Positions 1 through 14,796 of a stretch of 16,203 nt of DNA are shown here, piece after piece (position 1 is the first letter of the stretch; every line of letters begins with the position of its first letter). Made by a program: the position numbers and the translations under genes. The notes beneath the pieces are model-generated. The model searched no databases. It was not told where the DNA came from and was given only the letters and a program-made list of their open reading frames with translations. The DNA lies in IMG/VR virus record IMGVR_UViG_2547132271_000008, positions 1-16,203 of that record. One strand, given 5' to 3'. The stretch is from a virus (lineage: Duplodnaviria > Heunggongvirae > Uroviricota > Caudoviricetes).

Positions 1-474
1 ATGTACAGCCCGGTACAAATAGCCAATAAATTCATAACGTTGGGAAACCAACATCATAATCCTCTGACCCACATGCAACTGCAGAAGCTTACTTATATTG
101 CACATGGTTACTATTTAGCATTAACAGGTAAGCCTTTGCTCAATGAATGTGTCTCCGCGTGGAAGTACGGTCCAGTTATTCCTGGAATGTACGATGCTTT
201 CAAAGATTATGGGAATAAACCTGTTACGAATGTAGCAGTAGCTCCTTTTGGTGGCATTGTTACTATGGATCCACAAGCAGAGAGCATTATAGGGGCTGTT
301 TATAAATTTTACGGCTCGAAAAATGGAATTGAGTTATCAACTCTAACTCATATGCCTGGTACGCCTTGGTCACAAGCTTATAATGGTATTGGCTCGTCAA
401 TCATCTCAAATGATGCGATCAAGGCTTATTATCATGATTTATTGAATAACCGACAGCAATGTCAGGGCCTCTGA
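1..474 (+). CDS. Panacea-domain (DUF4065, SocA/GepA-like) protein; putative antitoxin-type component
   Basis: 157-aa ORF starting at window position 1. N-terminal pattern (MYSPVQIANKFI...HMQLQKLTYIAHGYYLA...GKPLLNECVSAWKYGPVIPGMY) matches the Panacea/DUF4065 signature as I recall it. Visibly AT-rich relative to the phage backbone. Family call from memory, not searched. Confidence 0.65.
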   Translation: MYSPVQIANKFITLGNQHHNPLTHMQLQKLTYIAHGYYLALTGKPLLNECVSAWKYGPVIPGMYDAFKDYGNKPVTNVAVAPFGGIVTMDPQAESIIGAVYKFYGSKNGIELSTLTHMPGTPWSQAYNGIGSSIISNDAIKAYYHDLLNNRQQCQGL

Positions 475-496
475 AAAAGTAATATTCAGGGATGAC

Positions 497-1045
497 ATGT
501 CTCACAATTCAGATATCTATAAACTTATCGGAGCGGCCGCAGGTGTTGAAAATGGTCGCTCTGAAGCATCCTTAAACTCTACTGACAGTCAAGAACAGAT
601 TTTTAAATCTGCATTTGAGCCGTCTAATCATGAGAGCGACGATGATTCTTCTTCAGAAAATAAAGCTATTCTGGAGGCAGAAGAGTTTGGTTCTAATACT
701 GGTGCATTGCATGAGTTTATGCAGCAGAACAGAATGGACAGTCTTCAAGCTCAGCTTGATATGCTCAAATCACAAGTACGGGATAAGATAGCTGACGCAA
801 CTGGTAAAGAAATAGACAATGAGCTTCGGACAAAAATGGCCTCATTCACGGTTTGGTTTATGTCGTGTTGGTGCTTATTCGTTGTCGCAATGTTTACATC
901 GTTTCTTATTGCACATGAAGGAAAGCCTCCAGTTGAAGCGATCGTTGCATTACTAGGTACAAGTACAATTAGTATTGTTGGTTTGGTTGGTTTCGTTGTT
1001 AGTGGATTGTTCAAATCAAGAAAAGATAGTGATAAAGAAAAATAA
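497..1045 (+). CDS. membrane protein with acidic N-terminal domain and two C-terminal TM helices; candidate PanT-like toxin partner
   Basis: 182-aa ORF 22 bp after the Panacea gene with AGGGA SD about 5 nt before ATG 497. Acidic/Ser-rich N-terminus, coiled-coil-like middle (SLQAQLDMLKSQVRDKIA), then two hydrophobic stretches (FTVWFMSCWCLFVVAMFTSFLIA; AIVALLGTSTISIVGLVGFVVSGLF) and a basic tail. No homolog recognised. Confidence 0.5.
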   Translation: MSHNSDIYKLIGAAAGVENGRSEASLNSTDSQEQIFKSAFEPSNHESDDDSSSENKAILEAEEFGSNTGALHEFMQQNRMDSLQAQLDMLKSQVRDKIADATGKEIDNELRTKMASFTVWFMSCWCLFVVAMFTSFLIAHEGKPPVEAIVALLGTSTISIVGLVGFVVSGLFKSRKDSDKEK

Positions 1046-1065
1046 CCCGTACATATACGGGTTAT
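1042..1065. terminator. perfect hairpin between convergent genes; likely bidirectional intrinsic terminator
   Basis: ATAACCCGTA (1042-1051), loop CATA, TACGGGTTAT (1056-1065). T-rich on both sides: TTTTAGTTT on +, and the complement of GATAAAGAAAAA on -. Sits between the + gene ending 1045 and the - gene ending 1079. Confidence 0.45.
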
Positions 1066-1078
1066 CCATAGTTTTAGT

Positions 1079-1351
1079 TTAGTTATATTTTTGTTTTTCC
1101 GTTCTGACTTTTTCCCACTCAGCTCGCCCTTCTTCCCGTCTTTTGTCAATATATTCCGCAAGATCCTGAATGTTGATGCAGCGTTTTGCTTTTTGTGATG
1201 TACCGATGCGATATGTAGGTACAGGCAACTTACAAGCGTTTGCTTTTGCTTCTGCTGTGGCTGGACTCATACCAAAGTATTTTTGACTAACTGCTGAGAG
1301 TTCAATGTTTGGGGTATTGAATTCAGCCATCAGTAAAAACAAGGTGTTCAT
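1079..1351 (-). CDS. PrtN/excisionase-like small DNA-binding protein
   Basis: Start chosen at the internal ATG (MNTLFLLMAEF...) because GGAG lies about 7 nt upstream; the ORF could extend to 1378. Motif KYFGMSPATAEAKANACKLPVPTYRIG resembles PrtN/Xis-type HTH proteins. Last gene of the leftward operon, the usual xis position. Confidence 0.5.
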   Translation of the reverse strand: MNTLFLLMAEFNTPNIELSAVSQKYFGMSPATAEAKANACKLPVPTYRIGTSQKAKRCINIQDLAEYIDKRREEGRAEWEKVRTEKQKYN

Positions 1352-1387
1352 AATTTTCTCCATCAAAACCGGCTGCACCCGGGAAAA

Positions 1388-1963
1388 TCATAATTCTGTG
1401 CTGGTGGCAGGAATTAGTTTCTGCCAGATAGCGGAAACATATTTTGCCTGATGACGGGCATCAGCCAGGGCGTTGTGCCGTTCTCCATCGAAAGGCATGT
1501 CCATTTTTGGGTCGAATCCGATGGAACGCCCAAGCGTAACGATCGTGCGTACATCGTGATCATTCCAGTACGCCCATGGGCAGATTTGTCCTGCTCGTTC
1601 ATAAGCTCCGCGTAAAATTACGTTGTCGAAGGTGGCCCCGTTACCCCAGACTTTTAAATATTTCGTATTGTCTGCGTGCCGATTAATGAAATGGCTCAGT
1701 TCAGAGAGTGCATCGCTGATCGACAAAGTATCATCAATAGAGATTGCAGCTCGTGCTTCAGGGCTTTGTTTCAACCACCACAGGATGGTATCGCCGTCAG
1801 GTGTGGCCCCTTGCTCCATGGCACTTTCCAGGCTAACAACCGTATAGAATTCTTGTCCGATATCTCCTGTTTCTGTGGTAAAGAACACTGCGCCAATGGA
1901 AACGATCGGTGCATCCTTATTTTTCCCCATCGTCTCAAGGTCGATCATTAAGTTGTTCATCAC
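1388..1963 (-). CDS. 3'-5' exonuclease, DnaQ-like (DEDDh) phage family
   Basis: 191 aa with DEDDh-type motifs: MIDLETMG near the N-terminus, WGNGATFDNVIL in the middle, ERHNALADARHQAKY near the C-terminus. ATGA start/stop overlap with the upstream gene. Confidence 0.7.
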   Translation of the reverse strand: MMNNLMIDLETMGKNKDAPIVSIGAVFFTTETGDIGQEFYTVVSLESAMEQGATPDGDTILWWLKQSPEARAAISIDDTLSISDALSELSHFINRHADNTKYLKVWGNGATFDNVILRGAYERAGQICPWAYWNDHDVRTIVTLGRSIGFDPKMDMPFDGERHNALADARHQAKYVSAIWQKLIPATSTEL

Positions 1964-2670
1964 TTCACCTCCTGCGGCGGTTCCGGTAGCGGCATCCAGT
2001 GAGTTGCTTGCTCAATACCATTACCCGGCTTAATTGTTGCACCTCCGCGCCGAAAGGTGCTTCCGGTATAGCGTGCGGAGCATATTAGCGGTTCAACCAG
2101 AGAGCTATCGAAATTCACCGAAATAAGCACGTTCTGGCCCTTTTCAGGCATTCGATCACTACAGCTTATCCAACTATCCGGAGTTCCCGGAGAGTTGCCA
2201 TTTACATCGAAGTTCGGCTCTGCGTCCTGAACCAGGAGGATGTAACCATTCTTGGCTGTATCAAGTTCTAACGCCTCGGTGACGGTGCCGAAATAGCGAT
2301 TACCTAAATCAGCATCACAAGTGCTTACATCAATGGAAACTTCCATGCCTTCGATTAATTCTGGCAAGTTGTAAGTTTGGCTTACAGGTTGGCTACCCTG
2401 AAGCATGGCGGCGCGGTGACACCAGATAATCCAGCCAAGCGCCATATCCCATGCCATGTATTCTCTATCGCCATTTTTTGCCCTACGGCGATCTACAGAT
2501 TCCCCGAAACGCTTCTCCATAAATAATTCATAGGCTGCTCGTTCATCCGATACTGCTGCCAGCGATGCCAGTGCAATTCGTGCCAGTTCCATTTGTTCGC
2601 CACGAGTAAGCCCGTTTTCAAGCGGATTTTTAATGAACAATTCAATACGTTCTTTGGTAATACTGGTCAT
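1960..2670 (-). CDS. DUF551 domain-containing phage protein
   Basis: 236 aa. C-terminal WISCSDRMPEKGQNVLISV...ATHWMPLPEPP matches the DUF551 signature common in lambdoid early-left regions. SD GAGGA upstream; ATGA overlaps with both neighbours. Confidence 0.6.
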   Translation of the reverse strand: MTSITKERIELFIKNPLENGLTRGEQMELARIALASLAAVSDERAAYELFMEKRFGESVDRRRAKNGDREYMAWDMALGWIIWCHRAAMLQGSQPVSQTYNLPELIEGMEVSIDVSTCDADLGNRYFGTVTEALELDTAKNGYILLVQDAEPNFDVNGNSPGTPDSWISCSDRMPEKGQNVLISVNFDSSLVEPLICSARYTGSTFRRGGATIKPGNGIEQATHWMPLPEPPQEVK

Positions 2671-2876
2671 TTGTTAATCCTCAAAACTTTATGCCCAGGC
2701 GCAAAAGCACGCGTTTTGTCTTTGCTTATTCGCCAGCCATCCTTGCGCGCCTCTTTTGCACAGCCTGCCCATGACGTACCGATATACTCACCGAAGTCTG
2801 GCCCTGGATATACACATTCCGTACACTGGCGGCAGTCACAATAGAGATGCATTGTGTAACTTGCGGCAATAGCCAT
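2667..2876 (-). CDS. small Cys-rich hypothetical protein
   Basis: Start set at MAIAAS... (ATG 2876) because AAGGAGG lies about 5 nt upstream. Cysteine cluster (CDCRQCTEC...GC). Translationally coupled within the operon. Confidence 0.45.
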   Translation of the reverse strand: MAIAASYTMHLYCDCRQCTECVYPGPDFGEYIGTSWAGCAKEARKDGWRISKDKTRAFAPGHKVLRINK

Positions 2877-2877
2877 A

Positions 2878-3441
2878 TCACCCTCCTTTACCATGAAGCA
2901 TGGCGTCGCTCCGCTCTATACCATCCAGCGCGATTCGCAGTGCCTGAATTGTGGTAGTGCTATCGTTTGGGGCTATTCCATATCGCTCGAATACAGCGAT
3001 ATGACCGCGCATAATCTCAGGCGTAAGCTCTTTGTAAGCATAAGCAAGCGACCCTGATGCATTATCCGGCACTACTGGCGATGGCTGTTTAGCTTCTAAA
3101 TCAGCAATTCTGTCAACCACGGCATCGACGGCATCTGAAAAACTGAAACAGTTACTCCACTCCGGCCTATCCCCGGTTGCTGCAAAATACATATCAGATA
3201 AAGCAGACTCAGCATTGTCACGCTCATTGATGAGTTGCTCTTCGCTTTCCTCCAGCTCTGCAATGCGTTTGCTTTGGGCTTCTCGTTCATCCAGCAGCGC
3301 CAGCACAATGTGTGGCGTTATCAAGGACTCAAATTCGGCAACAGCTTGCTCACCTCGCTTGTAATTCTTAATCCCACCTAAATCTTTCGCGTTCTGTGCC
3401 GCCTCACGCAGCGCCAGTGTGTCGATGTCGATGTTGCTCAT
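2878..3441 (-). CDS. Ead/Ea22-like early protein (tentative)
   Basis: Start at MSNIDID (ATG 3441) with GAGGAGG about 4 nt upstream. Acidic coiled-coil middle (RIAELEESEEQLINERD) typical of Ea22-like proteins. Family call from memory. Confidence 0.45.
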   Translation of the reverse strand: MSNIDIDTLALREAAQNAKDLGGIKNYKRGEQAVAEFESLITPHIVLALLDEREAQSKRIAELEESEEQLINERDNAESALSDMYFAATGDRPEWSNCFSFSDAVDAVVDRIADLEAKQPSPVVPDNASGSLAYAYKELTPEIMRGHIAVFERYGIAPNDSTTTIQALRIALDGIERSDAMLHGKGG

Positions 3442-3671
3442 TGTGCCTCCTCGATTTCGTCCCATTCCACCCAGGCATTCTCTCCATCAGCATCGATTTC
3501 ACCTTTGTGACCGCATTTGGAACAAACGGCCTCATCACCCGCCCACAAAGAATCTTTGGTTACCGACCATCCTGTTACCCTGGCTTTGCCGTGCTGGCAC
3601 TTAGGGCAATCATCAAGCCATTCGACTTCGACCGTTGAAGGACCAAATCCATGTTCAGTTCGGATGCTCAT
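3438..3671 (-). CDS. small zinc-ribbon protein
   Basis: CPKC...(22 aa)...CSKC motif. ATGA-type overlaps at both ends (3668-3671 and 3438-3441). Start taken at the internal Met (MSIRTEH). Confidence 0.45.
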   Translation of the reverse strand: MSIRTEHGFGPSTVEVEWLDDCPKCQHGKARVTGWSVTKDSLWAGDEAVCSKCGHKGEIDADGENAWVEWDEIEEAQ

Positions 3672-4024
3672 GACTGAACTCCTTTGCGAATCTGTTCCGC
3701 CCATTCTTCAAGGGATTTCTCCGCATATTCACCGGACAGGCCATCAATCGGATGCGATTCATTAGCTAACTCTTCTTTTGCTGACAGAATCATGCGTGTA
3801 ACGTCGAAAACTTCAGCCAAAGGCTTATTGATAAATCCGTGATTGAAAGCAGCAGCAAGACGGCTTGCGGTATAGTTAATACCCTCGTTGCGAGCCTCAG
3901 CACGTACTTCATCGAATTTACGCACCAGATACTCAGCATTTGTTTCATTCACTTTCAGATCTCGCGGTACACATTTCCCGCGAAGAAACCCTTCCATTTC
4001 GAAAACATTCATGCGCATTTGCAT
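3668..4024 (-). CDS. hypothetical early-left protein (YfdS-like by position and size)
   Basis: 118-aa ORF in the operon between the yfdR-like and zinc-ribbon genes. No recognisable domain. Overlaps the yfdR-like 3' end by 16 nt. Confidence 0.45.
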   Translation of the reverse strand: MQMRMNVFEMEGFLRGKCVPRDLKVNETNAEYLVRKFDEVRAEARNEGINYTASRLAAAFNHGFINKPLAEVFDVTRMILSAKEELANESHPIDGLSGEYAEKSLEEWAEQIRKGVQS

Positions 4025-4545
4025 AACCCCGATAACTCGTTAAAACGTTCCATAAACATCCCGTAGGCATGGCCTGGTGACAGTGGAATAACTTTGAACA
4101 TCTCTGTCGCCGGGATACCTTCCAGTACAGGCCAGAAAGAACCATCATCAAGCCCGAGATCGCGGCGTTCGGTTGCCAGCATAATGAGATCGGCATATTT
4201 CACTGGCGTGCTCATAACAGGAGGTAACCCGTATTTCTCACGGATTACGGCGTCTATTTTTTCTTCCATCCGTTTATAGTCAGGAAGAAGGCGTTTCAGT
4301 GGTGCGGGGATGTCCTGGCAATATGCTTCTGTTGCATCATGCATTAACGCTTCAAAAGCAAATTCCTGCGGTACCAGCTGGCTGCAAAGCACCGCATGTT
4401 GGGCGACGCTGTAGAAGTGTGAAAGATGTCCTGCAAAGCGACAGATATTTGAAAGGGAAACCGCGATATCGTTAATAACGATGTCGTCTTTATTTATCTT
4501 GTCATAATAAAAATGCTTCCCGGAAAAAGTTTTAATAAATGACAT
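4009..4545 (-). CDS. yfdR: HD-domain phosphohydrolase (YfdR-like 5'-deoxynucleotidase)
   Basis: HD-type motif (ALMHDATEAY) and conserved His-rich N-terminal part. Start taken at MSFIKTF, giving 178 aa, the length I recall for E. coli CPS-53 YfdR. Symbol assigned from memory. Confidence 0.65.
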   Translation of the reverse strand: MSFIKTFSGKHFYYDKINKDDIVINDIAVSLSNICRFAGHLSHFYSVAQHAVLCSQLVPQEFAFEALMHDATEAYCQDIPAPLKRLLPDYKRMEEKIDAVIREKYGLPPVMSTPVKYADLIMLATERRDLGLDDGSFWPVLEGIPATEMFKVIPLSPGHAYGMFMERFNELSGLCKCA

Positions 4546-4672
4546 TTTGTTCTCCACGTATATGCGCTGCACCGCGCTGAATTCTGCTAAAAGGAAGCTC
4601 TCACCATCCGGTGATTATTGAGTTAATTACGTTTCCATAAATGCCCCCGCAGGGGCATTTGCAGTAATGAAA

Positions 4673-5497
4673 TCAGGCGGTGAAAGTACCAATAAAGGTT
4701 TCTACTTTGCTGTCTTTGAATTTCTCAACAAGCAGATCACGAAATTCGTTAGCCATTTCTTCCTGCATCGCTTCCAGCTGAATAATGCGCAGAACCAGTA
4801 CAGGACGATCGCCAGTGATAATGCTGAGGCGTAATTTAAACGGACGTTCTTTCAGGCCTTCAAACGGAACGCATTTAAATTCAAATGCCACTGGCATAAT
4901 GTCTTTGGTTTTCGCTTCGACAGACTCCATCAGAGAGCGTTTGCCGCTGAAGTCATTGTCTTCAAAATCAGCGGTCTGGTTTGCTTCAATTGTGATTTTA
5001 CGGACTGCCGCAGCCGCTTTGGTTGCCTGAATGGTGTCACCATTAGCATCAAAGCCCACAAGGTAGTCGGCCCAGTCTTCAATCCATTCTGCCAGTGACT
5101 TCTGGGAGTTACGCTCGCCATTAACAGACAACAGAGCAGAAAACGGTGCTGTCTTTTTCAGTTTGAGGGTGGCGGTGTTATCTGCGTGACCTGGTTCATC
5201 AATAGTACCCAGGTTAAGCACACTGACGGCTCGCATATTATCGGCATCGATAAAGCAGCGGGTGCCTTCATCTGCAAGATCTTTAGAATAACGGGTAAAG
5301 TCATCGATGCTGGCAGTGGAAAGCGCACCACGGAAACGGAAGCGATTTAAATTAAATTTTTCCAGATCATGAATGCGGAAATTCTCAGGCAATGCCACAG
5401 CATCGGCACCAATCTTACTGATAATTTCATTAACACCCTGAGCAGAAATAAGGGCATGGATTTGATTAATTGCGGTTGCGTCTAAGTTCTGAGACAT
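4673..5497 (-). CDS. yfdQ: YfdQ-like prophage protein (DUF2303-type, function unknown)
   Basis: 274-aa ORF, same length and operon position as CPS-53 YfdQ. Clean coding appearance. Symbol assigned from memory. Confidence 0.6.
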
Positions 5498-5562
5498 AAT
5501 AAGTCCTCACTATATAAAGATATTCAGTGATGAGATAAATAATCAGTTTATTAAAAACGATA

Positions 5563-5925
5563 TTAACGACCTGCTGCGCGGAGTTTTCCGTCAGGTTCAC
5601 CGGCAAGAGTCAGTAATTGTCCCTGGTCTTCCTGCAGAATAGTCAGGCGACCACCGCGATTGACATACATCGGCGTTTCGGTGGTGTCTTCTTCGGAAAT
5701 TTTCCCGCGGTTAGTCGGGCGAACATATGAGAGTTTGTGTTTGATTTTCACACGGTTCTCATCAAATGGTTCGATTTCCAGGTTGAGTGAGACCTTACCT
5801 TTGGTTTTCGTGTTCATCACACCGGAAGCGACTTCACTGAGAACTGCGCCGATTTTGGTTTCAAATACGCCGCCGTCCAGCTCCCCGATAAATGCCTGCA
5901 CATCAGTACTGCGTTCGCTAGCCAT
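5563..5925 (-). CDS. yfdP: YfdP-like prophage protein
   Basis: ORF track gives 182 aa, but the N-terminal 62 codons are Cys/Arg-rich and overlap the structured non-coding region. Internal ATG 5925 (MASERSTD...) has GAGGAG about 6 nt upstream and yields 120 aa, the length I recall for YfdP. Confidence 0.55.
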   Translation of the reverse strand: MASERSTDVQAFIGELDGGVFETKIGAVLSEVASGVMNTKTKGKVSLNLEIEPFDENRVKIKHKLSYVRPTNRGKISEEDTTETPMYVNRGGRLTILQEDQGQLLTLAGEPDGKLRAAGR

Positions 5926-5973
5926 TTTGCTGCTCCTCATCATATCGACCCTGCAAGGTCGGTTGGTTTCTCC

Positions 5974-6062
5974 ACAAAACAGAGAAGAACACCTGCGGTG
6001 GCAGCCGCCCGGATGGATTGGGTTATGAGCCCGTCGTCCGGTGATGCTCTTCTCTGTTTTGT
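5974..6062. repeat. 15-bp perfect inverted repeat (ACAAAACAGAGAAGA / TCTTCTCTGTTTTGT) around a 59-nt GC-rich spacer
   Basis: Read directly: arm A 5974-5988, arm B 6048-6062, exact reverse complements. Lies in a ~400-bp gap with no convincing ORF, immediately 3' (on the - strand) of the terminator at 6060-6108. Confidence 0.8.
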
Positions 6063-6108
6063 AAAAAGAGCGGTACCAGCCGGAAGCAAGTGTACAAACT
6101 GGTACCGC
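6060..6108 (-). terminator. Rho-independent terminator for leftward transcription (tL1-like position)
   Basis: 10-bp GC-rich stem GCGGTACCAG (6070-6079) / CTGGTACCGC (6099-6108) with a 19-nt loop. On the - strand it is followed by UCUUUUUACA (6069-6060). About 220 bp downstream of the first leftward gene. Confidence 0.5.
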
Positions 6109-6328
6109 CAAAGCAGTGGCTGTTGTGGTGCCGGGTGCCTCCCGGTGCCTGGCGAAGGTTGCACACCAGGCGGGTGGGTATCCACAGAAGGTCGACTGTC
6201 AGTCTCAACCTTAACCCGCGTGCGCTGAGCCGCATTCACCACAACGCTAAGGATTCTCTCTGGTTGAAAATACTTAGCTGTTATGTGCCTGCTTTTAGCC
6301 ACATCAGGCGAGGTGGTAGGTACGTGAG

Positions 6329-6697
6329 CTACTTGGTGGTATTTGCCTTCGATGAGGCAAGATAGGCATCAAGATCACTTTTTAGGTAAATAACCTTTCT
6401 ACCGATTTTTAAAAAAGGTATTCGAACTTTTCCTGTGCTAGCCCAATTAGCTAAGGTTTGCGCTTCTACGCCGATATAGGCTGCGGCGTCTTCTCTATTC
6501 ATTTTTTCATGTTGTTCTGACAGAATACTCGTTGCTTCAAAATCAAAGCCCAGCCTTTCAAAGGCATAGATAATAGAGCCCAAAGCCATTTGTTTAACTG
6601 TTCTGTAGTTACTGCTTTCAACTTGGCTTAATGCAGTTTTTGCTGCTTCAATCACCACAAGCCAGGCATCTCGTTGGTTGTCGATACTGCCATCCAT
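6329..6697 (-). CDS. DNA-binding protein with C-terminal AlpA/excisionase-type HTH (HTH_17-like), in the N-gene position
   Basis: Start taken at ATG 6697 (MDGSID...) with AGGAGA about 6 nt upstream; the GTG at 6703 is too close to the SD. C-terminal AAAYIGVEAQTLANWASTGKVRIPFLKIGRKVIYLKSDLDAYL fits an AlpA/Xis-type HTH. Not Arg-rich, so not N-like. Confidence 0.5.
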   Translation of the reverse strand: MDGSIDNQRDAWLVVIEAAKTALSQVESSNYRTVKQMALGSIIYAFERLGFDFEATSILSEQHEKMNREDAAAYIGVEAQTLANWASTGKVRIPFLKIGRKVIYLKSDLDAYLASSKANTTK

Positions 6698-6703
6698 ATT
6701 CAC

Positions 6704-6875
6704 TCTCCTGCCATGTGCGAATCATCCGGTCATTCATACGCCACCGTCGGCTACTTCGTGGGCGTCCTGCCTGTTCGTTATCTTTGATATAAAAATCTAA
6801 CTTAACTTAGTTTTGATGGCAAGAGAAAACACCAAACTTTTCTTAGTTCGGTGTTTTGGTTAGAGAAAAGGGGGG
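6704..6875. promoter_or_regulatory. putative oL/pL region downstream of the repressor gene
   Basis: AT-rich gap containing ACTTAG/CTTAGT half-sites (CTAACTTAACTTAGTT at 6797-6812; TCTTAGT at 6841-6847) identical to those in the oR region. Promoter hexamers not confidently placed. Confidence 0.3.
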
Positions 6876-7502
6876 CTAGAGTTCGTATTGAACTCCTTTG
6901 ACTACACCAATGATGAGGCAATTACCATTGATCGGGATGTTGGGGTACCGGGGATTTAATGGCACTAAAAACTTTTGAGGGCCATCGATAACTAATTTTT
7001 TTACTGTGGCTTCGTTTGTTCCATCAAGTCTAGCGATGACTATTTTTCCATGCCGGGGTTCTGCATCAGGATCTACAATCACTGTTGCGCCTTCTGGTAT
7101 TGTTGGGAGGCCGTTAGGGTTAGTCATGGAGTCGCCTTTAACCTCCAATGCAAATGAGTTATCACCAATCTTTAATGATGTATCTACCCACTTGTCTACT
7201 TCACTAAACACTTCTGCTGTCCTGCACTCAGTAAACTGCCCAGCCTGAACCCACGAGATTACAGGAACTCTGCGCATGTTTGTGACGAGTTTGCCTTCAA
7301 ACTCCGCACCATAAAGAATGTAATCTATTGACGTATTGAAGAACTTCGCTAATTTTGAAAGTGCTTCCCCACCAGGGACATTGATGTCTTTCTCCCAGTA
7401 CCCCACAGCAACGTCACTTACTCCACAAAATTTACCCAATTCTTTCTGGGACGTTCTGGTAACTCTTCTCAGAGCTTTTATACGCTGACCAACCGTTTCC
7501 AT
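6876..7502 (-). CDS. cI: CI-like prophage repressor (N-terminal XRE-type HTH + C-terminal S24 LexA-like autopeptidase)
   Basis: 208 aa. N-terminal HTH (QKELGKFCGVSDVAVGYWEKD). C-terminal S24 signature with GDSM (EVKGDSMTNP) and a downstream Lys (TVKKL). Divergent from the Cro-like gene across a 97-bp operator region. Confidence 0.8.
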   Translation of the reverse strand: METVGQRIKALRRVTRTSQKELGKFCGVSDVAVGYWEKDINVPGGEALSKLAKFFNTSIDYILYGAEFEGKLVTNMRRVPVISWVQAGQFTECRTAEVFSEVDKWVDTSLKIGDNSFALEVKGDSMTNPNGLPTIPEGATVIVDPDAEPRHGKIVIARLDGTNEATVKKLVIDGPQKFLVPLNPRYPNIPINGNCLIIGVVKGVQYEL

Positions 7503-7599
7503 AGGAGCACCATTTCTTTAATTACTAAGTAATCTTAGTTTTTATTGACCTAAGATAGATTGATAATTAACATCTAATAAAACTTAGTTTGGAGGGCAT
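7503..7599. promoter_or_regulatory. oR-type operator/promoter region (divergent pRM/pR)
   Basis: Palindrome ACTAAGTAATCTTAGT (7524-7539) plus further CTAAG/ACTTAG half-sites (7551-7555, 7582-7587). Candidate rightward promoter TTGACC (7545-7550) with TAACAT about 17 bp downstream. GGAGGG SD before the cro-like ATG. Confidence 0.55.
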
Positions 7600-7800
7600 A
7601 TGACGACTGACGATATCGAAAGCTACTTCGGCAGCATTGAGAAAGTTGCTGCTTTTTTCGGCATAACAACTGAAGCCGTTTATCAGTGGCGAAACCGTCC
7701 TGGCCAGTTAATTCCAAAAGGACGTGCAGCAGAGGCTGCATATAGAACTTGCGGACGGTTGCCATTTAAACCTGAGCTTTATGAAAAATCTAATGGATAA
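7600..7800 (+). CDS. cro: Cro-like small HTH regulator
   Basis: 66 aa, first rightward gene opposite the repressor, with GGAGGG SD. HTH-like segment (FFGITTEAVYQWRNR). Confidence 0.6.
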   Translation: MTTDDIESYFGSIEKVAAFFGITTEAVYQWRNRPGQLIPKGRAAEAAYRTCGRLPFKPELYEKSNG

Positions 7801-8422
7801 ATCGATTTACAGAAACCACAGATATGAGGGCTTAAACGTGGGTAAAGAACCTGAATGGAAAGTTGATAAGCAACCAGCATGGCTGGTGGCAGCAATACGA
7901 AGAACGATTGCTGATTTACCTCATGGCTATGAGGAAGCAGCAGAAATTCTTGGTTTGTATAAATCTGATGATATCACCCCAGCAAAAGATCAATTGCATA
8001 ACAGACTGCGTAGCGGTGGGGATCAAATTTTTCCACTTGAGTGGGCCATGGTTTTACAGGATGCCAGTGGTACCAGGCATGTAACGGATGCAATAGCCCG
8101 TCGTAGTAATGGGGTGTTTGTGCCGCTGGTGGTCATTGATGACATTGACAATGGTGACATTAATCAGCGGCTGATGGAGTCAATAGAATGGATTGGCAAG
8201 CATTCCCAGTACTTACGCAAGGCAACTGCTGATGGAGTTATTGACCAAGCTGAGCGTGAGCAAATCGAAGAGAACAGCTACCAAGTAATGGCGAAGTGGC
8301 AGGAGCATTTAACACTGTTATTTCGTGTTTTTTGTGCGCCGGAAAAGAGTAACGCCCGCGAGTGTGCAGCTCCGGGCGTCGTGGCGTCGATTGCTTCTGG
8401 TTGTGGAGAAACTAACGCATGA
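7781..8422 (+). CDS. early regulatory protein, CII-like/YmfL-like (tentative)
   Basis: Second rightward gene, the cII position. Start uncertain: GTG 7724, ATG 7781 or ATG 7793, none with a clear SD, and it overlaps the cro 3' end. About 213 aa from 7781. Family call tentative. Confidence 0.45.
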
Positions 8423-8757
8423 ACAGTTTAACAACACACTACCGTCGTTCGCAACTGATTGCGCTTCCTGTACCGGGTGGAAAAGCGAAGGTGGAATATT
8501 GCTATGCAGTGAATGTACCAGGTGACAGGGAAATTGTAACCCACAGCTTTGCAGAGTGGGCTGTGGGTGATTTCAACCGGCAGAAGGAGACAGTCCTTTG
8601 CGACAAGTTAACCGCTGGTTCAAAGATCACTACGGAGTGCCCGTCAGAGTCATTCGTTGGGAGCCGGAAACACAACGGGTTATCTACCTCCGTGAAGGCT
8701 ATGAACATGAGTGCTTCAGCCCGCTCGAACAGTTTCGTCGTAAATTCAGGGAAATAG
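8419..8757 (+). CDS. hypothetical protein (YmfM-like by size/position); C-terminal half may be out of frame
   Basis: ATGA-coupled to the upstream gene and ends 10 nt before the O-like gene. After about codon 60 the composition turns Ser-rich with rare codons (TCA, GGG, CGG, TTA), while the overlapping frame looks more coding. Confidence 0.35.
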
Positions 8758-8810
8758 AGGTCGGTCATGAGCCTGTTAATGACATCCCAGCCCATTGTGA
8801 TAAATCGTGA
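8598..8810 (+). CDS. alternative-frame ORF with TTG start and strong SD (possible real overlapping gene or 3' part of a frameshifted gene)
   Basis: AAGGAGA (8584-8590) lies 7 nt before TTG 8598. The 70-aa product ([40 protein letters not shown]...) has a globular-looking composition and preferred E. coli codons. It overlaps the O-like gene start by 44 nt. Confidence 0.3.
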
Positions 8811-9759
8811 TCTTGCATGCCGTATTGGTCTGAATGAGGCAATTGTGTTGCAGCAGCTTCATTACTGGCTGAATGAAACGAATTCCGGCACTGAGCATGG
8901 CGGAATTCGCTGGGTTTATAACACGACAGAACAGTGGCTGGAGCAGTTTCCGTTCTGGTCAGAGTCCACTCTGAAACGCACATTTGCAAGCCTGAAATCA
9001 CTTGGGGTTTTGCGTCGCGAGCAACTCAATAAATCGAAGCGTGACATGACCAACTTCTACACGATCAACTATGAAAGTGAGCTTCTAGAAGAGGTCAAAG
9101 TGAACGAATCCATCAGGTCAAAATGCACTTCTCCATCGGGTCAAAGTGACCTGATGGATGGGCGCAAAATGACACGATCCATTGGTTCAAAACGACACGC
9201 TGTCATCGGGTCAAAATGGCCCAATGATCTTACAGAGAATACAACAGAGATTACTACAGAGAATAAAACCTCTTCTCGTCCGGACGCTTCGCAACCGGAC
9301 ACGCAGATGGCTGAACAGGATTTTTTAACTCGCCATCCTGATGCGGTTGTATTCAGCCCTAAAAAGCGCCAGTGGGGAACGCAGGATGATTTGACCTGCG
9401 CACAGTGGCTCTGGAAAAAAATCATCGCTCTGTACGAGCAGGCCGCCGAATGTGACGGCGAAGTGGTACGTCCTAAAGAACCGAACTGGACAGCCTGGGC
9501 AAACGAAATTCGCCTGATGTGTGTACAGGATGGGCGTACTCACAAACAAATCTGCGAGATGTACAGCCGCGTCAGCCGCGATCCGTTCTGGTGCCGTAAC
9601 GTGCTCAGCCCGTCGAAGCTGCGGGAAAAATGGGATGAGCTTTCCCTGCGCTTATCGCCGTCCGTCAGCACGCACACAGAAAAACGCGAAGACCCGTACT
9701 TCAAAGCCAGTTACGACAATGTGGACTACAGCCAGATCCCGGCAGGATTCAGGGGGTGA
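8767..9759 (+). CDS. phage replication initiation protein (lambda O-like replisome organizer)
   Basis: N-terminal [27 protein letters not shown]...WVYNTTEQWLEQFPFWSESTLKR resembles the replisome-organizer N-domain. Iterons lie inside the gene, as in lambda O. Sits in the canonical position after the cII-like gene. Confidence 0.7.
   Translation: MSLLMTSQPIVINRDLACRIGLNEAIVLQQLHYWLNETNSGTEHGGIRWVYNTTEQWLEQFPFWSESTLKRTFASLKSLGVLRREQLNKSKRDMTNFYTINYESELLEEVKVNESIRSKCTSPSGQSDLMDGRKMTRSIGSKRHAVIGSKWPNDLTENTTEITTENKTSSRPDASQPDTQMAEQDFLTRHPDAVVFSPKKRQWGTQDDLTCAQWLWKKIIALYEQAAECDGEVVRPKEPNWTAWANEIRLMCVQDGRTHKQICEMYSRVSRDPFWCRNVLSPSKLREKWDELSLRLSPSVSTHTEKREDPYFKASYDNVDYSQIPAGFRG
9091..9270. repeat. 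origin-like iteron array (six ~23-bp-spaced GGTCAAARTG repeats) followed by an AT-rich ACAGAGA triple repeat
   Basis: Read directly: iteron cores at about 9093, 9116, 9139, 9162 (degenerate GCGCAAAATGA), 9185 (GGTTCAAAACGA) and 9209. Then ACAGAGA at 9233, 9244 and 9256 in an AT-rich stretch. Confidence 0.6.
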
Positions 9760-9761
9760 TC

Positions 9762-10250
9762 ATGAGTCTTTTGAATGAAGCTCAGAAATTCATTGAAGCC
9801 CATCCGGGGTGTACTTCCGGAGACATTGCGGATGCTTTTGCAGGTTACTCACGGCAGCGCGTTCTGCAGTCAGCAAGCAAGTTACGTCAGAGTGGGCGTG
9901 TGGCTCACCGTTGTGAAGGAGATACACGCAGACATTTCCCACGCCTGACTGAGAGAGCGCAGGAGCCGGAACCACAACCAGTTCGTGAAACCAGACCTGT
10001 GCGCAATTTCTATGTCGGCACTAACGATCCCCGGGTGATTTTGTGCCTGACCCGCCAGGCTGAAGAACTGGAGTCCAAGGGCTTATACCGTCGTGCTGCA
10101 ACCGTGTGGATGGCGGCATTCCGTGAAAGCCACTCCCAGTCAGAACGAAACAATTTTCTGGCGCGCCGTGAGCGGTGCTTACGGAAAAGCAGCAAGCGCG
10201 CTGCATCGGGTGAAGAGTGGTATCTGTCAGGGAATTACGTGGGGGCTTAA
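9762..10250 (+). CDS. PerC-like transcriptional regulator (tentative)
   Basis: AGGGGG SD 5 nt before ATG 9762. C-terminal LESKGLYRRAATVWMAAFRES...RRERCLRK resembles the PerC/Pch core as I recall it. TAATG overlap with the next gene. Confidence 0.4.
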   Translation: MSLLNEAQKFIEAHPGCTSGDIADAFAGYSRQRVLQSASKLRQSGRVAHRCEGDTRRHFPRLTERAQEPEPQPVRETRPVRNFYVGTNDPRVILCLTRQAEELESKGLYRRAATVWMAAFRESHSQSERNNFLARRERCLRKSSKRAASGEEWYLSGNYVGA

Positions 10251-10903
10251 TGAGTAATAAATATTGCCAGGCGCTGGTGGAACTGCGGAACAAACCAGCC
10301 CATGAACTGAAGGAAGTGGGCGATCAGTGGCGCACGCCGGACAACATTTTCTGGGGAATTAACACCCTGTTTGGCCCGTTTGTTCTGGATCTGTTCACTG
10401 ACGGTGATAACGCCAAATGTGCCGCGTATTACACGGCGGAAGATAACGCGCTGGCGCATGACTGGTCAGAACGTCTTGCGGAGCTTAAAGGTGCTGCCTT
10501 TGGTAATCCCCCATACAGCCGCGCCAGTCAGCATGAGGGGCAATACATCACCGGCATGCGTTACATCATGAAACATGCCAGTGCCATGCGTGATAAGGGC
10601 GGGCGCTATGTTTTCCTGATCAAAGCTGCCACCAGCGAAGTGTGGTGGCCGGAAGATGCGGACCATATTGCTTTTATTCGCGGGCGTATTGGTTTTGAAC
10701 TGCCTGCCTGGTTTATCCCGAAGGATGAGAAGCAGGTGCCGACAGGAGCTTTCTTCGCTGGTGCTATTGCTGTTTTCGACAAGACCTGGAAGGGACCGGC
10801 AATCAGCTACATCGGGCGCGATGAACTTGAGGCATGTGGTGAAGCCTTTCTGGTGCAGGTTCGCCAGCAGGCGGAAAAACTGGTCAGGGAGATGGCAGCA
10901 TGA
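10250..10903 (+). CDS. phage Dam-type N6-adenine DNA methyltransferase
   Basis: Catalytic NPPY motif (AAFGNPPYSR) and the N-terminal KYCQALVE...WRTPDNIF pattern of small phage Dam-family methylases. Coupled to neighbours (TAATG and ATGA). Confidence 0.7.
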   Translation: MSNKYCQALVELRNKPAHELKEVGDQWRTPDNIFWGINTLFGPFVLDLFTDGDNAKCAAYYTAEDNALAHDWSERLAELKGAAFGNPPYSRASQHEGQYITGMRYIMKHASAMRDKGGRYVFLIKAATSEVWWPEDADHIAFIRGRIGFELPAWFIPKDEKQVPTGAFFAGAIAVFDKTWKGPAISYIGRDELEACGEAFLVQVRQQAEKLVREMAA

Positions 10904-11226
10904 CGACGTTAACTCAATGCCAGCAGCAGGTGCTGGATATGCTGATTTCTTACCAGAAAGAACGTGGCTTCCCGCCAACCAATCAGGAGGTGGCAACCAT
11001 GCTGGGATACCGTTCAGTGAATGCAGCGGTGGAGCATCTTCGCGCACTGGAGAAAAAAGGCGTCATTACGATAAAGCGTGGCGTGGCCCGGGGGATAACG
11101 CTTCATACCGCAGTGAAGGACGACGACAGAGAGGCGGTCGGGATTATCCGCTCACTGCTTGCCGGTGAGGAAAACGCAAGGCTGCGTGCAACCCACTGGT
11201 TACATGAGAGGGACCTGAAAGTATGA
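10900..11226 (+). CDS. LexA N-terminal DNA-binding-domain-like protein lacking the S24 peptidase domain
   Basis: MTTLTQCQQQVLDMLISYQKERGFPPTNQEVATMLGYRSVNAAVEHLRALEKKGVITIKRGVARGITL aligns by eye with E. coli LexA residues 1-70. Only about 38 further residues follow, with no Ser/Lys catalytic domain. Confidence 0.65.
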   Translation: MTTLTQCQQQVLDMLISYQKERGFPPTNQEVATMLGYRSVNAAVEHLRALEKKGVITIKRGVARGITLHTAVKDDDREAVGIIRSLLAGEENARLRATHWLHERDLKV

Positions 11227-11612
11227 AGCTGATCCTGCCTTTTCCGCCCAGCGTGAACACGTACTGGCGACATCCCAACAAAGGGGCGTTTGCTGGTAAG
11301 AGCCTGATAAGCGCGGCGGGGCGAAAATTCCAGAGCGCGGCGTGCGCAGCAATAGTTGAGCAGTTACGTCGTCTGCCAAAACCAACGTCGGCACCTGCTT
11401 CAGTGGAGATCGTGTTGTTTCCTCCGGATAACCGGATCCGCGATCTGGACAACTATAACAAGGCGCTGTTTGACGCCCTGACCCACGCGGGTGTGTGGGA
11501 AGACGACAGTCAGGTGAAAAGAATGCTGGTGGAGTGGGGACCGGTTATCCCGGAAGGGAAGGTCGAGATCACCATCAGTAAGTACGAGAAAACGGCGGGT
11601 GCAGCCGCCTGA
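11223..11612 (+). CDS. rusA: RusA Holliday-junction resolvase
   Basis: 129 aa. N-terminal LPFPPSVNTYWR and the acidic catalytic region (IRDLDNYNKALFDALTHAGVWEDDSQV) are typical of RusA. ATGA overlap with the upstream gene. Confidence 0.85.
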   Translation: MKLILPFPPSVNTYWRHPNKGAFAGKSLISAAGRKFQSAACAAIVEQLRRLPKPTSAPASVEIVLFPPDNRIRDLDNYNKALFDALTHAGVWEDDSQVKRMLVEWGPVIPEGKVEITISKYEKTAGAAA

Positions 11613-11631
11613 TCAAGAGGAGAAACGAAGT

Positions 11632-12441
11632 ATGAATAATCTGATGGTCATTGATGGTATTGAAGTTCGTCGTGATGCTTATGGGCGTTACAGCCTGAAC
11701 GATCTGCACAGGGCTGCCGGGGGAGAACAAAAAAACCGCCCGAAATACTGGCTCTCCAATAAGCAAACCTGTGAATTGATTGAACAACTTTTCACCGAGG
11801 GTGGAATTCCGCCTCTGGAACAAAATCAACCAGTTAGCGTCATTAATGGCGGAAATAACCAGGGGACGTATGTCTGCAAAGAACTGGTGTATGCCTATGC
11901 AATGTGGATCAGCCCGTCATTCCATCTGAAGGTGATCCGTACTTTCGACATGGTAACCAGCGCACCGGAAAAATTATCCGGACAGGCTGCTGACAAGATG
12001 CAGGCTGGCGTGATCCTGCTGGACTTTATGCGCCGGGAATTAAATCTGTCTAACTCATCAGTGCTTGGAGCCTGTCAGAAGCTTCAGGAGGCTGTTGGCT
12101 TACCGAATCTGGCACCGCGCTATGCCATTGATGCTCCTGCTGACGCGCCTGATGGCTCAAGTCGCCCCACGCTGTCGCTGAGTGCACTGCTGAAGCAGTA
12201 TGGTATCCGCCTGACAGCTAATCAGGCATATCACCAGATGGCGAAGCTGGGGATCGTTGAACAACGTGAACGATACAGCCGCACTGCGATTAACAACATC
12301 AAAAAATTCTGGTCGCTGACAGCGAAAGGCTGCATGTTCGGCAAAAACATCACCAGTCCCGCAAATCCGCGCGAGACGCAGCCGCATTTCTTCGAATCCC
12401 GATTCCCTGAGCTGTTAAAGCTGCTCGATACCGTTCATTGA
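11632..12441 (+). CDS. KilA-N domain protein (anti-repressor/Bro-type)
   Basis: Start at MNNLMVIDG with GAGGAG upstream. N-terminal YSLNDLHRAAGG...RPKYWLSNKQTCELI matches the KilA-N signature. Confidence 0.65.
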   Translation: MNNLMVIDGIEVRRDAYGRYSLNDLHRAAGGEQKNRPKYWLSNKQTCELIEQLFTEGGIPPLEQNQPVSVINGGNNQGTYVCKELVYAYAMWISPSFHLKVIRTFDMVTSAPEKLSGQAADKMQAGVILLDFMRRELNLSNSSVLGACQKLQEAVGLPNLAPRYAIDAPADAPDGSSRPTLSLSALLKQYGIRLTANQAYHQMAKLGIVEQRERYSRTAINNIKKFWSLTAKGCMFGKNITSPANPRETQPHFFESRFPELLKLLDTVH

Positions 12442-12442
12442 G

Positions 12443-13438: not shown

Positions 13439-13455
13439 TTTTGTGGAGAAAGTTG

Positions 13456-13827
13456 ATGCGTGATATTCAAATGGTTCTTGAACGTTGGGGGGCATGGGTG
13501 GCAAATAATCACGAGGATGTGGAATGGTCATCTGTTGCTGCAGGTTTTAAGGGATTAATTCCTTCGAAAGTAAAATCCCGCCCGCAATGTAGCGATGACG
13601 ATGGCCTGATCATTAGCTCTGCGATGACAGTTCTTAAGAAAAAGGAACCGTATCAATACGAATTACTGGAAATGTATTATGTGTATGGGGTTACATTACG
13701 GGCGTTGGGGGTAAAACTGGGGATATCACTTAATCAGGTTGTTATCAGACTGCAGAAAGCTGAAGGGTTTATTGACGGTTGTCTGGCAATGTTGGGGGTA
13801 TCTTTAGAAATTGATTGTTACATATAG
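13456..13827 (+). CDS. late-gene antiterminator Q-like protein
   Basis: About 123 aa with GGAG SD 7 nt before ATG 13456. Last gene of the nin-type block after RusA and DUF968. Sequence (MRDIQMVLERWGAWVANNHEDVEW...YELLEMYYVYG) resembles the small Q family of phage 82/21-type phages. Confidence 0.65.
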   Translation: MRDIQMVLERWGAWVANNHEDVEWSSVAAGFKGLIPSKVKSRPQCSDDDGLIISSAMTVLKKKEPYQYELLEMYYVYGVTLRALGVKLGISLNQVVIRLQKAEGFIDGCLAMLGVSLEIDCYI

Positions 13828-13902
13828 TAATAAATTCAATCAAAGTAAATAATCATATTTTATTATAACCTCCTGATGATACCTGTTCATTGGGAGGTTA
13901 TT

Positions 13903-14520: not shown

Positions 14521-14650
14521 TTTTATGTTTGGTATTCAGAGTTCGCCGTGCTTAAGAAAGTCAAGATTCTAAAAATACTGAATGAGCTACTTGTGTTATA
14601 ACAAAAATGCTATTAGTGTGTTAAGAGTGGTTACTTCGACACACAACTTA

Positions 14651-14675
14651 AACCCGCCACTGAGCGGGTTTTTTG
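14651..14675 (+). terminator. Rho-independent terminator
   Basis: Stem ACCCGC (14652-14657) / GCGGGT (14664-14669) with loop CACTGA, followed by TTTTTTG. About 130 bp downstream of the cargo gene. Confidence 0.6.
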
Positions 14676-14796
14676 TACCTGTAAACTTGGTGCAGTACAG
14701 TAAACACGCTGGTGGTCGTGAATACTGACTTTTTATCTTGCTGGCTTTTTAGACAAGAGTTATTGGTATGTCATGTTAACCAGAAGGGAAAAAGAC

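Follow-up and report, generated by a model that had tools for sequence, protein, structure and literature searches.

The small RNA (sRNA) sRNA-17 of Escherichia coli K1 strain RS218 is a 193-nt transcript of an mEp460-type prophage, characterised by Northern blotting and by rapid amplification of cDNA ends (5′/3′ RACE); it is more abundant in stationary phase and is repressed by ArcA, which binds to its promoter region (PMC7719688). In wild-type RS218 the downstream gene yfdP is represented by ~0.5 reads, whereas in the sRNA-17 deletion yfdP rises ~96-fold, yfdR rises as well, and tens of genes and several phenotypes are altered (PMC7719688). The authors reported no Rfam homologue of sRNA-17 (PMC7719688). 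The prophage sRNAs STnc100, PasD and EcOnc27 have been reported as Hfq-associated with many partners in RIL-seq (sequencing of ligated interacting RNAs); a 2026 preprint groups STnc100 with PasD1 and PasD2 as related prophage sRNAs, and two papers describe STnc100 copies downstream of stx2 as the Hfq-binding EcOnc27/sRNA103. Structured RNAs of a different kind occur in the early operons of phage HK022, where put occurs shortly after PL and ~270 nt beyond PR (PMC9378689). Here we report on a gap between two leftward genes of a Caudoviricetes virus, IMG/VR record IMGVR_UViG_2547132271_000008, of which positions 1 to 16,203 (16,203 nt, hereafter the window) were analysed. The gap precedes yfdP, and we are fairly confident that its minus strand carries a composite non-coding module consisting of an sRNA gene related to sRNA-17 and STnc100, a three-way-junction RNA, and a small hairpin with the ribosome-binding site of yfdP. 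The coordinates of all features are collected in Table 1.

The relationship to sRNA-17 is evident at both ends of the sRNA gene. The termini of sRNA-17, which we took from the full-length primers in the published primer table (PMC7719688), correspond to the window as follows: the 5′ end, CGTTGTGGTGAATGCG..., is found as CGUUGUGGUGAAUGCG at 6246-6231, with 16 of 16 nt identical before the two bodies diverge, and the 3′ end, ...GCGGTACCAGCCGGAAGCAAGTGTAC with AAAAGA before it, matches 6064-6095 (plus strand). The 3′-terminal terminator of sRNA-17, GGCGGUACCAG...CUGGUACCGCUCUUUU, is present in the window element, and the location agrees too, being upstream of yfdP, on the same strand and in a prophage of the mEp460/SfV type. 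The internal sequence as a whole does not correspond, since the window carries one type of body (body A) and sRNA-17 another (body B). Judged by its sequence, the window sRNA is a recombinant variant of sRNA-17, in which an STnc100-like body of SfV-type prophages is joined to the linker and terminator of sRNA-17. A small RNA gene was among the readings offered by the initial annotation of this DNA, and it is borne out by the identity of the 5′ 16 nt and of the whole 3′ part, as well as by a near-threshold match to STnc100.

At gathering thresholds Rfam returned no match over the window. The STnc100 model (RF02076, gathering threshold 47 bits) was found in E-value mode, with model positions 1-206 aligning to 6263-6061 on the minus strand at 36.3 bits (E = 2.5e-6), and the commonest E. 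coli variant of the gap (L154), which carries an RprA-like linker, scores 49.1 bits and thus lies above the threshold of 47. The full-length architecture of the family is present, with a closing helix, inner hairpins and a terminal terminator. The closing helix is a perfect 9-bp inverted repeat, and both the STnc100 alignment and the minimum-energy fold place it outermost. The part best conserved with the STnc100 consensus is a nearly identical block of 22 nt, CACCGGGAGGCACCCGGCACCA, that occurs once in the window; the three GGTGCC copies that had been noted in the gap (6127-6132, 6134-6139 and 6144-6149) are this block read on the opposite strand, and they form the inner CCGGG hairpin. The predicted fold of 6063-6246 (-80.1 kcal/mol, z = -3.2) consists of a multi-branched body, the 9-bp closing helix, a mostly unpaired linker AGCCACUGCUUUGG and a 13-bp terminator with a U-tail, a structured body, unpaired linker and rho-independent terminator that would conform to the usual build of Hfq-dependent sRNAs. 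As the authors of the sRNA-17 study reported no homologue in Rfam, its link to STnc100 appears to be new.

The hairpin at 6070-6108, initially described as terminator-like, has a perfect 10-bp stem (6070-6079 / 6099-6108) and a 19-nt loop, and is followed on the minus strand by UCUUUUU at 6069-6063. A simple terminator scan missed it because such a scan permits loops of 3-8 nt. With a GC-rich stem directly 5′ of a U-tract on the transcribed strand, this hairpin is an ordinary intrinsic terminator, and it is the sRNA's own. The proposal of a tL1-like terminator cluster thus holds insofar as a real intrinsic terminator lies between the first leftward gene and yfdP; there is a single terminator, however, and no cluster, and it belongs to the sRNA itself. 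The stem sequence varies by genus and yet stays complementary, with GGCGGUACCAG, GGCGGCGUC and GGCGGCAUC types distinguishable by eye. In several genera (comparison sequences, denoted here by L numbers: L008, L018, L024, L027, L030, L032, L120 and L124) the terminator loop is enlarged by a conserved insert, UCUUCAAC...GAGGAUGAAGAUAAUGUUCUG, which resembles an extra stem or a mini open reading frame (ORF) with its own Shine-Dalgarno sequence (AGGAGG..AUGAAGAUAGUGUUCUGA).

Among 59 distinct sequences of the sRNA region, body and linker types recombine independently: body A is mostly paired with the linker UUUAUGCUGUGUGUAGUCYU, the window and a few relatives combine it with AGCCACUGCUUU, and body B, that of sRNA-17, also carries AGCCACUGCUUU. 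We compared the linkers by an exact-word scan with 14 core sRNAs (RybB, RprA and others, sequences from PMC7311995). The linker word GCCACUGCUUU equals nucleotides 1-11 of RybB, while in sister variants the same slot is occupied by an alternative linker that equals RprA nucleotides 57-85 over 14-26 nt. This RprA identity is beyond chance by length alone, and suggests that prophages captured the RprA 3′ module, or the reverse. Because the window linker copies the RybB 5′ seed, the sRNA is predicted to pair with porin mRNAs such as those of ompC and ompA. In RNAduplex calculations the linker and RybB itself form the same 8-bp core GCCACUGC with both messages: with ompC at -49..-40 the energies are -17.2 kcal/mol for the window linker and -17.4 kcal/mol for RybB, and with ompA at +19..+33 they are -17.9 and -17.5 kcal/mol. 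All tabulated compensatory mutants of RybB involve C2, which lies within the seed (PMC7311995). Against the rpoS leader, the RprA-like word had no advantage over shuffled sequence (RNAduplex); the published RprA-rpoS pairing uses C42, outside this word (PMC7311995). We propose that the linker would serve as a seed through which the sRNA acts in trans, and the finding of the conserved RprA 3′ region at this place in sister variants suggests that seeds are swapped as modules. Both the copying of RybB and RprA words into the linker and their modular exchange, as judged from sequence analysis, appear to be new.

Most sister sRNAs (L005, L039, L116, L154 and many more) have the linker (A)UUGCUGUGUGUAGUCUU, which corresponds to RprA nucleotides 60-77 and is situated ~50-85 nt upstream of the junction described below; in L225, L230 and L235 the identity with RprA covers 19-26 nt and reaches into the RprA terminator stem (GUAGUCUUUGCCCAUC). 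Two further arrangements of the body were observed. In L010 (Buttiauxella, 2820-3000) an STnc100-like body, GUUGUGGUGAAUGCGGCUCAGCG...CACCGGGAGGCACCCGGCACCACAGC, is joined straight to AUUUUAUGUGGAGAACUAAC and the yfdP leader. In L168 (7942-8075) the order is reversed, with the terminator and then the junction followed by GUUGUGGUGAAU, the start of an STnc100-like body, off the 3′ strand of the junction.

All features that had been described in the gap were found where the initial annotation placed them, including a perfect 15-bp inverted repeat (5974-5988 / 6048-6062) around a 59-nt spacer. The repeat extends to 25 nt with 84% complementarity, and by our own arithmetic ~7e-5 perfect 15-bp inverted repeats would be expected by chance per 400 bp. 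It is not a terminator, since no U-tract follows it on either strand. It is instead the stem of a separately conserved three-way-junction RNA that the initial annotation had not foreseen. For the minus-strand RNA of 5920-6130 the folding energy is -92.9 kcal/mol (z = -6.8, with 0 of 200 shuffles as stable), and the junction with its leader (5923-6069, minus) reaches z = -5.8 relative to shuffles. Folding of the minus-strand transcript and covariation across homologous prophages, the checks put forward at the outset, both support the structure. In an alignment of 26 diverse junction copies on the three-helix structure (A1), 94.6% of cells are paired, compared with 89.0 ± 0.4% in shuffles, none of 500 of which reach the observed value; 12 pairs have changed in both partners, where shuffles average 6.0, and when the partners are slid by 1-3 columns only 33-51% of cells pair. 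Compensatory pairs occur in all three junction helices, in copies from many Enterobacterales prophages, and in hairpin B they affect three of the four pairs, with insertions of up to ~25 nt. Frequent G-U wobbles (11-122, 27-106) would be A-C mismatches on the opposite strand, and with the covariance model made from A1 the minus strand reaches 115.6 bits and the plus strand 41.5. For both reasons we regard the junction as an RNA on the yfdP-sense strand, and the substitution pattern indicates that its structure is under selection there. No Rfam family matched the junction, short-stem copies (see below) included, and it was not described in anything that literature searches by motif sequence or for tRNA-like elements of lambdoid late operons brought up. 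Judged by sequence analysis, the junction is a conserved, unannotated RNA motif that appears to be new.

Cross-genus conservation, as seen by BLAST at loci encoding YfdP homologues, coincides with the terminator and the inverted repeat (5960-6112) and not with the sRNA body; it extends over Mangrovibacter, Enterobacter, Leclercia, Kosakonia, Phytobacter, Atlantibacter, Superficieibacter, Pseudocitrobacter and Scandinavium. The order of elements is fixed across genera: the terminator with its U-tract, the long stem with two hairpins, GUGGAGAAACUAAC, the small hairpin and the ribosome-binding site. Where the stem of the small hairpin (hairpin C) differs in sequence, the hairpin itself is retained with a loop of the UGCAG/GGCAG type. 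Loops of the UUGCAG, GGCAG and GUGCAG type recur in hairpins B (6004-5999) and C (5956-5951) whatever gene lies downstream, and could represent a shared protein-binding loop. Model and word searches found no second junction copy in the rightward or late part of the window. A weak model match at 13854-13913 (plus strand; 15.2 bits, E = 0.012, GC 0.30) is probably an unrelated AT-rich hairpin; it lies just upstream of an unannotated 214-aa ORF (13876-14520). The word GTGGAGAAACTAAC at 8403-8416 (plus strand) is an exact copy of the junction tail of other genera, from which the tail in the window (5975-5962) differs by 1 nt. It falls where the CII-like gene ends and provides an ORF at 8419-8757 (ATGA overlap) with its ribosome-binding site, and the tail may thus be a shared module-boundary or ribosome-binding word.

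The loop word GGCTCATAACCCAATC retrieves more than 120 viral contigs. In these the junction is placed before the first gene of early-left blocks, and the genes directly after it encode YfdP homologues, YfdR-like proteins, two kinds of RdgC-like protein or Xis-like proteins. A short-stem form, with an outer stem of 6-7 bp, sits at the head of the late operon, between a Q-like gene with its terminator and the holin-lysozyme-spanin genes; one contig (L204) possesses both the long- and the short-stem form, and its short-stem variant gave four partial matches only among cultured phages. In the Klebsiella phages GZ7 and Chronis a tRNA gene precedes the short form by 5 nt, and CCA comes after the 7-bp outer stem. 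By our own reading, NCCA follows the stem in about half of ~8 short-stem copies, and a 7-bp stem with CCA is seen in some of them (L243, L244, L204 and L215) and not in the long-stem copy of the window. As to tRNA genes upstream of the junction, in the Phytobacter loci L020 and L025 (~2722-2800) a tRNA called as Ile(aat) lies just upstream of the junction in the early-left operon, and in the Klebsiella phages L243 and L244 (1346-1502) tRNA-Asn and tRNA-Arg lie in the late leader upstream of it. A hammerhead-like core, CUGANGA, was considered and dropped, being confined to some short-stem copies and giving no match to an Rfam ribozyme.

From these arrangements we can outline how the module might operate. 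In a lysogen, the sRNA would be made and ended at its terminator and yfdP-yfdQ-yfdR kept silent; in lytic growth, leftward transcription from pL would pass the terminator and the junction would form in the read-through RNA. There the junction may act, and we say this with low confidence, as a leader or punctuation mark that some host factor recognises. A search of 25 loci found no consistent site complementary to the hairpin A loop within 300 nt on either side, which points to a factor acting in trans. The role we prefer is RNA processing, by RNase III on the long outer stem and by RNase P-type recognition of the short-stem form. Processing is favoured because the junction abuts either a U-tract or the 3′ end of a tRNA; RNase III would suit the long form because its stem of ~20-25 bp is rich in A-U and G-U pairs, and RNase P the short form because that form is tRNA-like. 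Cleavage would free the sRNA, tRNA or terminator RNA lying upstream and leave the downstream mRNA with a 5′ end that is both defined and structured, and it would also recreate the sRNA 3′ end when an antiterminated polymerase ignores the terminator. The cleavage step is a guess, rather more apt to fail than to hold.

The reading of the gap as a composite RNA module has to be weighed against two accounts that assign the same DNA a different function. According to one, the gap is a decayed or frameshifted protein gene and its hairpins are incidental. The initial annotation saw no convincing ORF, with which we agree apart from one qualification, a 120-codon GTG ORF that spans nearly the whole gap; the Prokaryotic Genome Annotation Pipeline (PGAP), moreover, calls a 'frameshifted hypothetical protein' in one genome, while leaving the ORF uncalled in an identical one. 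The ORF has no Pfam match, however, and its variable sites are spread 22/22/19 over codon positions 1/2/3 among 57 sister sequences, without the excess at third positions that a gene would show; most sisters carry an 8-nt indel (an insertion in the commonest variant), which is not a multiple of three. For these reasons together with the PGAP calls we do not consider the ORF a gene. Its composition is rich in Arg and Pro, as GC-rich non-coding DNA would give, and no homologous family that would betray a pseudogene remnant was found with Pfam. Conservation across genera, finally, is limited to RNA helices and loops with compensatory changes, so that a decayed gene is scarcely credible. The other account sees in the STnc100-like body and the terminator chiefly an attenuator that acts in cis on the leftward operon, with the short RNA as a by-product. 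The element does belong to the unit transcribed from pL, where the first gene precedes it and yfdP follows, and no promoter of its own was detected in the window; in L010 the body is fused straight to the yfdP leader, from which it follows that STnc100-like bodies may also act in cis, and both yfdP and yfdR go up when the sister locus is disrupted (PMC7719688). Against this, sRNA-17 is a discrete RNA whose promoter region binds ArcA and whose deletion alters the expression of tens of genes and several phenotypes (PMC7719688); STnc100, EcOnc27 and PasD associate with Hfq and have many RIL-seq partners, and a pure attenuator would hardly explain the swapping of RybB-like and RprA-like linkers. 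We consider a mainly attenuating role unlikely. A number of observations nevertheless weigh against the reading that we propose. The STnc100 score of the window sRNA is under threshold (36.3 against 47 bits), and no sigma-70-like promoter for the sRNA was found in window positions 5400-7000, nor any promoter consensus within the terminator or junction by scan and inspection, so expression may depend on pL or on processing from the 3′ untranslated region of the upstream gene. A discrete transcript with these ends is known for the sister element and carried over to the window by homology, and the resistance cassette inserted in the sRNA-17 deletion may account for the yfdP rise by polar read-through, an idea that comes from our own reading of the primer design. 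L010 has neither terminator hairpin nor junction between body and yfdP leader. The 11-nt RybB identity is significant by position only (the RybB 5′ seed, in the same slot); chance words of 10-12 nt shared with other sRNAs were common in the same scan, and the seed is at the extreme 5′ end in RybB and internal in the window sRNA. As for the junction, ARAGORN called no tRNA or tmRNA in the window or at junctions, the Rfam tRNA model gave no junction match even at E = 10, the proposed processing role derives from placement and structure, and the long- and short-stem forms would need different nucleases.

For the junction itself, two other functions compete with RNA processing. It might be a cis-acting antitermination or anti-Rho element, similar to put (which binds the beta' zinc-binding domain and thereby promotes read-through of terminators further on) or to nut/boxA, that binds RNA polymerase or Nus factors and renders transcription of the operon processive; a put-like antitermination RNA had indeed been suggested in the initial annotation. 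Junctions stand at the entry of both antitermination-dependent types of lambdoid operon, early-left and late past the Q-like gene, and the invariant loop, with no partner in cis, points to a conserved host factor. The loop GCUCAUAAC also resembles boxA (GCUCUUAA in lambda nutL and GCUCUUUAAC in rrn) in part, with a substitution and a deletion in the U-rich core counting against the resemblance, and some hairpin B loops (YCCUAACC) may resemble the boxB of phage 21. The junction, however, lies after the terminator and cannot help polymerase to pass it. The HK022 early region, home of putL and putR, lacks the junction loop word even when up to three mismatches are allowed and gives only a weak AT-rich match to the junction model; the position is wrong and the rightward early operon of the window has no copy, so the put-like proposal is not supported. 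A lambda-type nut site is no better match, the position being wrong here also, and no N-like arginine-rich protein was seen among the leftward genes with Pfam. In the late operons a Q-modified polymerase should need no further RNA signal. We find antitermination improbable. A boxA reading of the U-tract, CGCUCUUUUUAC, was also tried and dropped because the resemblance is not conserved in other genera. The second competing idea is that hairpin A mimics the anticodon arm of initiator tRNA, acting in translation (30S P-site/IF3) or as a decoy for MetRS or VapC-type nucleases. A stretch of 14 nt of its loop and stem, CGGGCUCAUAACCC, is identical to the anticodon arm of the initiator tRNA gene found in all 5426 E. 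coli genomes, against which the tRNA sequence was checked; the loop is near-invariant across genera, a Klebsiella phage variant keeps the pairing by a G-U wobble (GGG/UCC), and the short-stem form in some copies combines a 7-bp outer stem with CCA and follows tRNA genes. Common variants, on the other hand, have GG for GGG or CUCAUUC for CUCAUAA, L031 has a different loop entirely, and, as said above, neither the tRNA finders nor the Rfam tRNA model recognise the element. Such mimicry strikes us as distinctly less probable than antitermination, and RNA processing remains the function that we prefer.

The window has the layout of a lambdoid immunity region, and the order of first leftward gene, gap and yfdP was confirmed; beyond yfdP follow yfdQ (DUF2303) and then yfdR. 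The pL candidate, a minus-strand site at 6822-6794 that we predict to be pL from its sequence, is the sole sigma-70-like site found in 5400-7000 and is overlapped by ACTAAG-type operator-like half-sites, as read from the sequence; the gap element lies ~540-700 nt from it, with the single junction copy ~730 nt downstream. The first leftward ORF, with a GTG start and 124 aa, encodes a protein of the excisionase/AlpA-like HTH type, a candidate for the early regulator or antiterminator of the phage; RefSeq/PGAP annotates the C-terminal 57 aa only and the phage record 122 aa. The block just past its stop codon gave short separate BLAST matches in prophages of other genera (L008, L012, L017, L021 and L023), and a relative, ACCACYGAGCCUGAWGUGGUGAAAAGACAGGCA, occurs in L027, L090 and L091; the distance from this block to yfdP varies between genera, and it could form a hairpin with a 9-10-nt loop. 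When the gap was used as query (window 5900-6340), Escherichia virus mEp460_4F5 was identical (100%), and prophages of three chicken E. coli strains were identical except for the first 6 nt. Matches to the module or parts of it occur in 2860 of the 5426 complete E. coli genomes, and also in Shigella, Salmonella, Klebsiella and Citrobacter phages, Stx2 phages included. Two loci (L007 and L014; not K-12) have no sRNA, terminator or junction 5′ of yfdP and carry iteron-looking repeated GATTTTGACGG-like words in their place. In the K-12 prophage CPS-53 (L003, 3248-3604) the stretch between yfdO and yfdP is 357 bp.

Table 1. Features of the gap upstream of yfdP and of the surrounding early region, in window coordinates
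Feature	Position	Strand	Basis or remark
CII-like gene	3′ end at 8422		
P22-Cro-like gene	7600-7800	+	
S24/HTH repressor gene, cI-like	6876-7502	-	Pfam
Predicted pL-type promoter, TTGCCA-17-TAGATT	6794-6822	-	adjoins the cI-like repressor gene on its left
First leftward gene, 124 aa, C-terminal HTH_17	6329-6703	-	Pfam, E = 3.8e-9
Gap between first leftward gene and yfdP	5926-6328		
Conserved block UACCACCUCGCCUGAUGUGGCUAAAAGCAGGCA, just past the stop codon of the HTH_17 gene	6278-6318	-	BLAST
120-codon GTG ORF spanning nearly the whole gap	5940-6302	-	
Small RNA gene, sRNA-17 variant and borderline STnc100 member, ~184 nt	6063-6246	-	Rfam, primers, fold
Closing helix, 5′ arm GUUGUGGUG	6237-6245	-	pairs with 6122-6130
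CCGGG-AGGCA-CCCGG hairpin and closing-helix 3′ arm CACCACAAC (6130-6122)	6122-6147	-	
Linker word GCCACUGCUUU (RybB nucleotides 1-11), putative seed	6110-6120	-	
sRNA intrinsic terminator: 10-13-bp stem, 15-19-nt loop, UCUUUUU	6063-6109	-	fold
Three-way-junction RNA	5974-6062	-	covariation and covariance model
Junction outer stem (the inverted repeat)	6062-6043 with 5993-5974	-	
Possible outer-stem extension, U-tract with GGAGA	U6067 to A5969	-	
Hairpin A	6009-6041	-	stem covaries
Near-invariant loop of hairpin A, CGGGCUCAUAACCCAA	6033-6018	-	
Hairpin B, GCGG-CUGCCA-CCGC	5995-6008	-	length and loop vary between phages
Conserved tail GUGGAGAAACCAAC, directly 3′ of the junction	5962-5975	-	kept across genera
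Small hairpin C, CGACC-UUGCAG-GGUCG, just 5′ of the yfdP ribosome-binding site	5946-5961	-	fold
yfdP ribosome-binding site, GAGGAG	5938-5933	-	
yfdP coding sequence	5563-5925, start codon 5925-5923	-	RefSeq and phage annotation

The broadest claim that could be made for the module is a joint one: that the junction marks the entry to antitermination-dependent blocks by means of an initiator-tRNA-like arm, and that the sRNA is a chassis with swappable host-like seeds. We hold it tentatively and lean towards doubting it. Were it true, the junction would offer an anticodon-like arm to host machinery, such as RNase P, the ribosome, RNA polymerase or Nus factors, and prophages would tap the host envelope-stress and stationary-phase regulons via RybB-like and RprA-like seeds. 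The junction could then be a missing cis-element of lambdoid gene expression, whether in processing, antitermination or translation, and linkers of these two kinds suggest that prophages could reprogramme porin or stress regulons. For the diversification of sRNAs, the implication would be that body and seed are apparently exchanged as separate modules. Linking sRNA-17, a K1 virulence-associated RNA, with the STnc100/PasD/EcOnc27 family joins two literatures. The module also bears on annotation, since pipelines either annotate nothing here or predict ORFs that are spurious or 'frameshifted'.

Compared with described systems, the module shares something with each and coincides with none. With HK022 putL and putR the junction has in common that it is a structured early-operon RNA with two adjacent stem-loops in a lambdoid phage seemingly devoid of an N-like protein; it differs from them in sequence and in covariance model, and whereas the put sites lie near each early promoter, the window element is single, has an ORF and a terminator ahead of it, and lacks a counterpart on the rightward side. 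RNA processing signals such as the RNase P sites of the mascRNA type and the RNase III sites of phages T7 and lambda resemble it in that a structured element separates a message from the non-coding RNA upstream of it. Some copies of the short-stem form recall tRNA-like signals in a 7-bp stem with CCA, next to a hairpin like an anticodon arm; the element departs from them in having no D arm and no T-loop consensus, so that tRNA finders do not call it. RybB and RprA are similar to the sRNAs of this locus in the linker slot, and the remainder of the window sRNA is homologous to neither. STnc100 shares with it the UGGUG/CACCA closing helix, the 22-nt block, the terminal terminator and carriage by prophages; the linker, or seed, is not the same, and the described STnc100/EcOnc27 copies belong to late regions, either downstream of stx2 or close to Q and the lysis genes, in contrast to the early-left position in the window. 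Between sRNA-17 and the window sRNA the body of ~110 nt is unrelated, being of the SfV/STnc100-like kind with the CCGGG-AGGCA-CCCGG hairpin here, and the upstream neighbour differs as well, an HTH_17 gene in the window and a long non-coding stretch by the repressor in mEp460; the two agree fully in the 5′ 16 nt, in the closing helix's 3′ arm, in the linker GCCACUGCUUU and in the terminator. That terminator, finally, recalls lambda tL1 as an intrinsic terminator between the first leftward gene and the delayed-early genes, with the difference that in the window it also forms the 3′ terminus of a stable sRNA.

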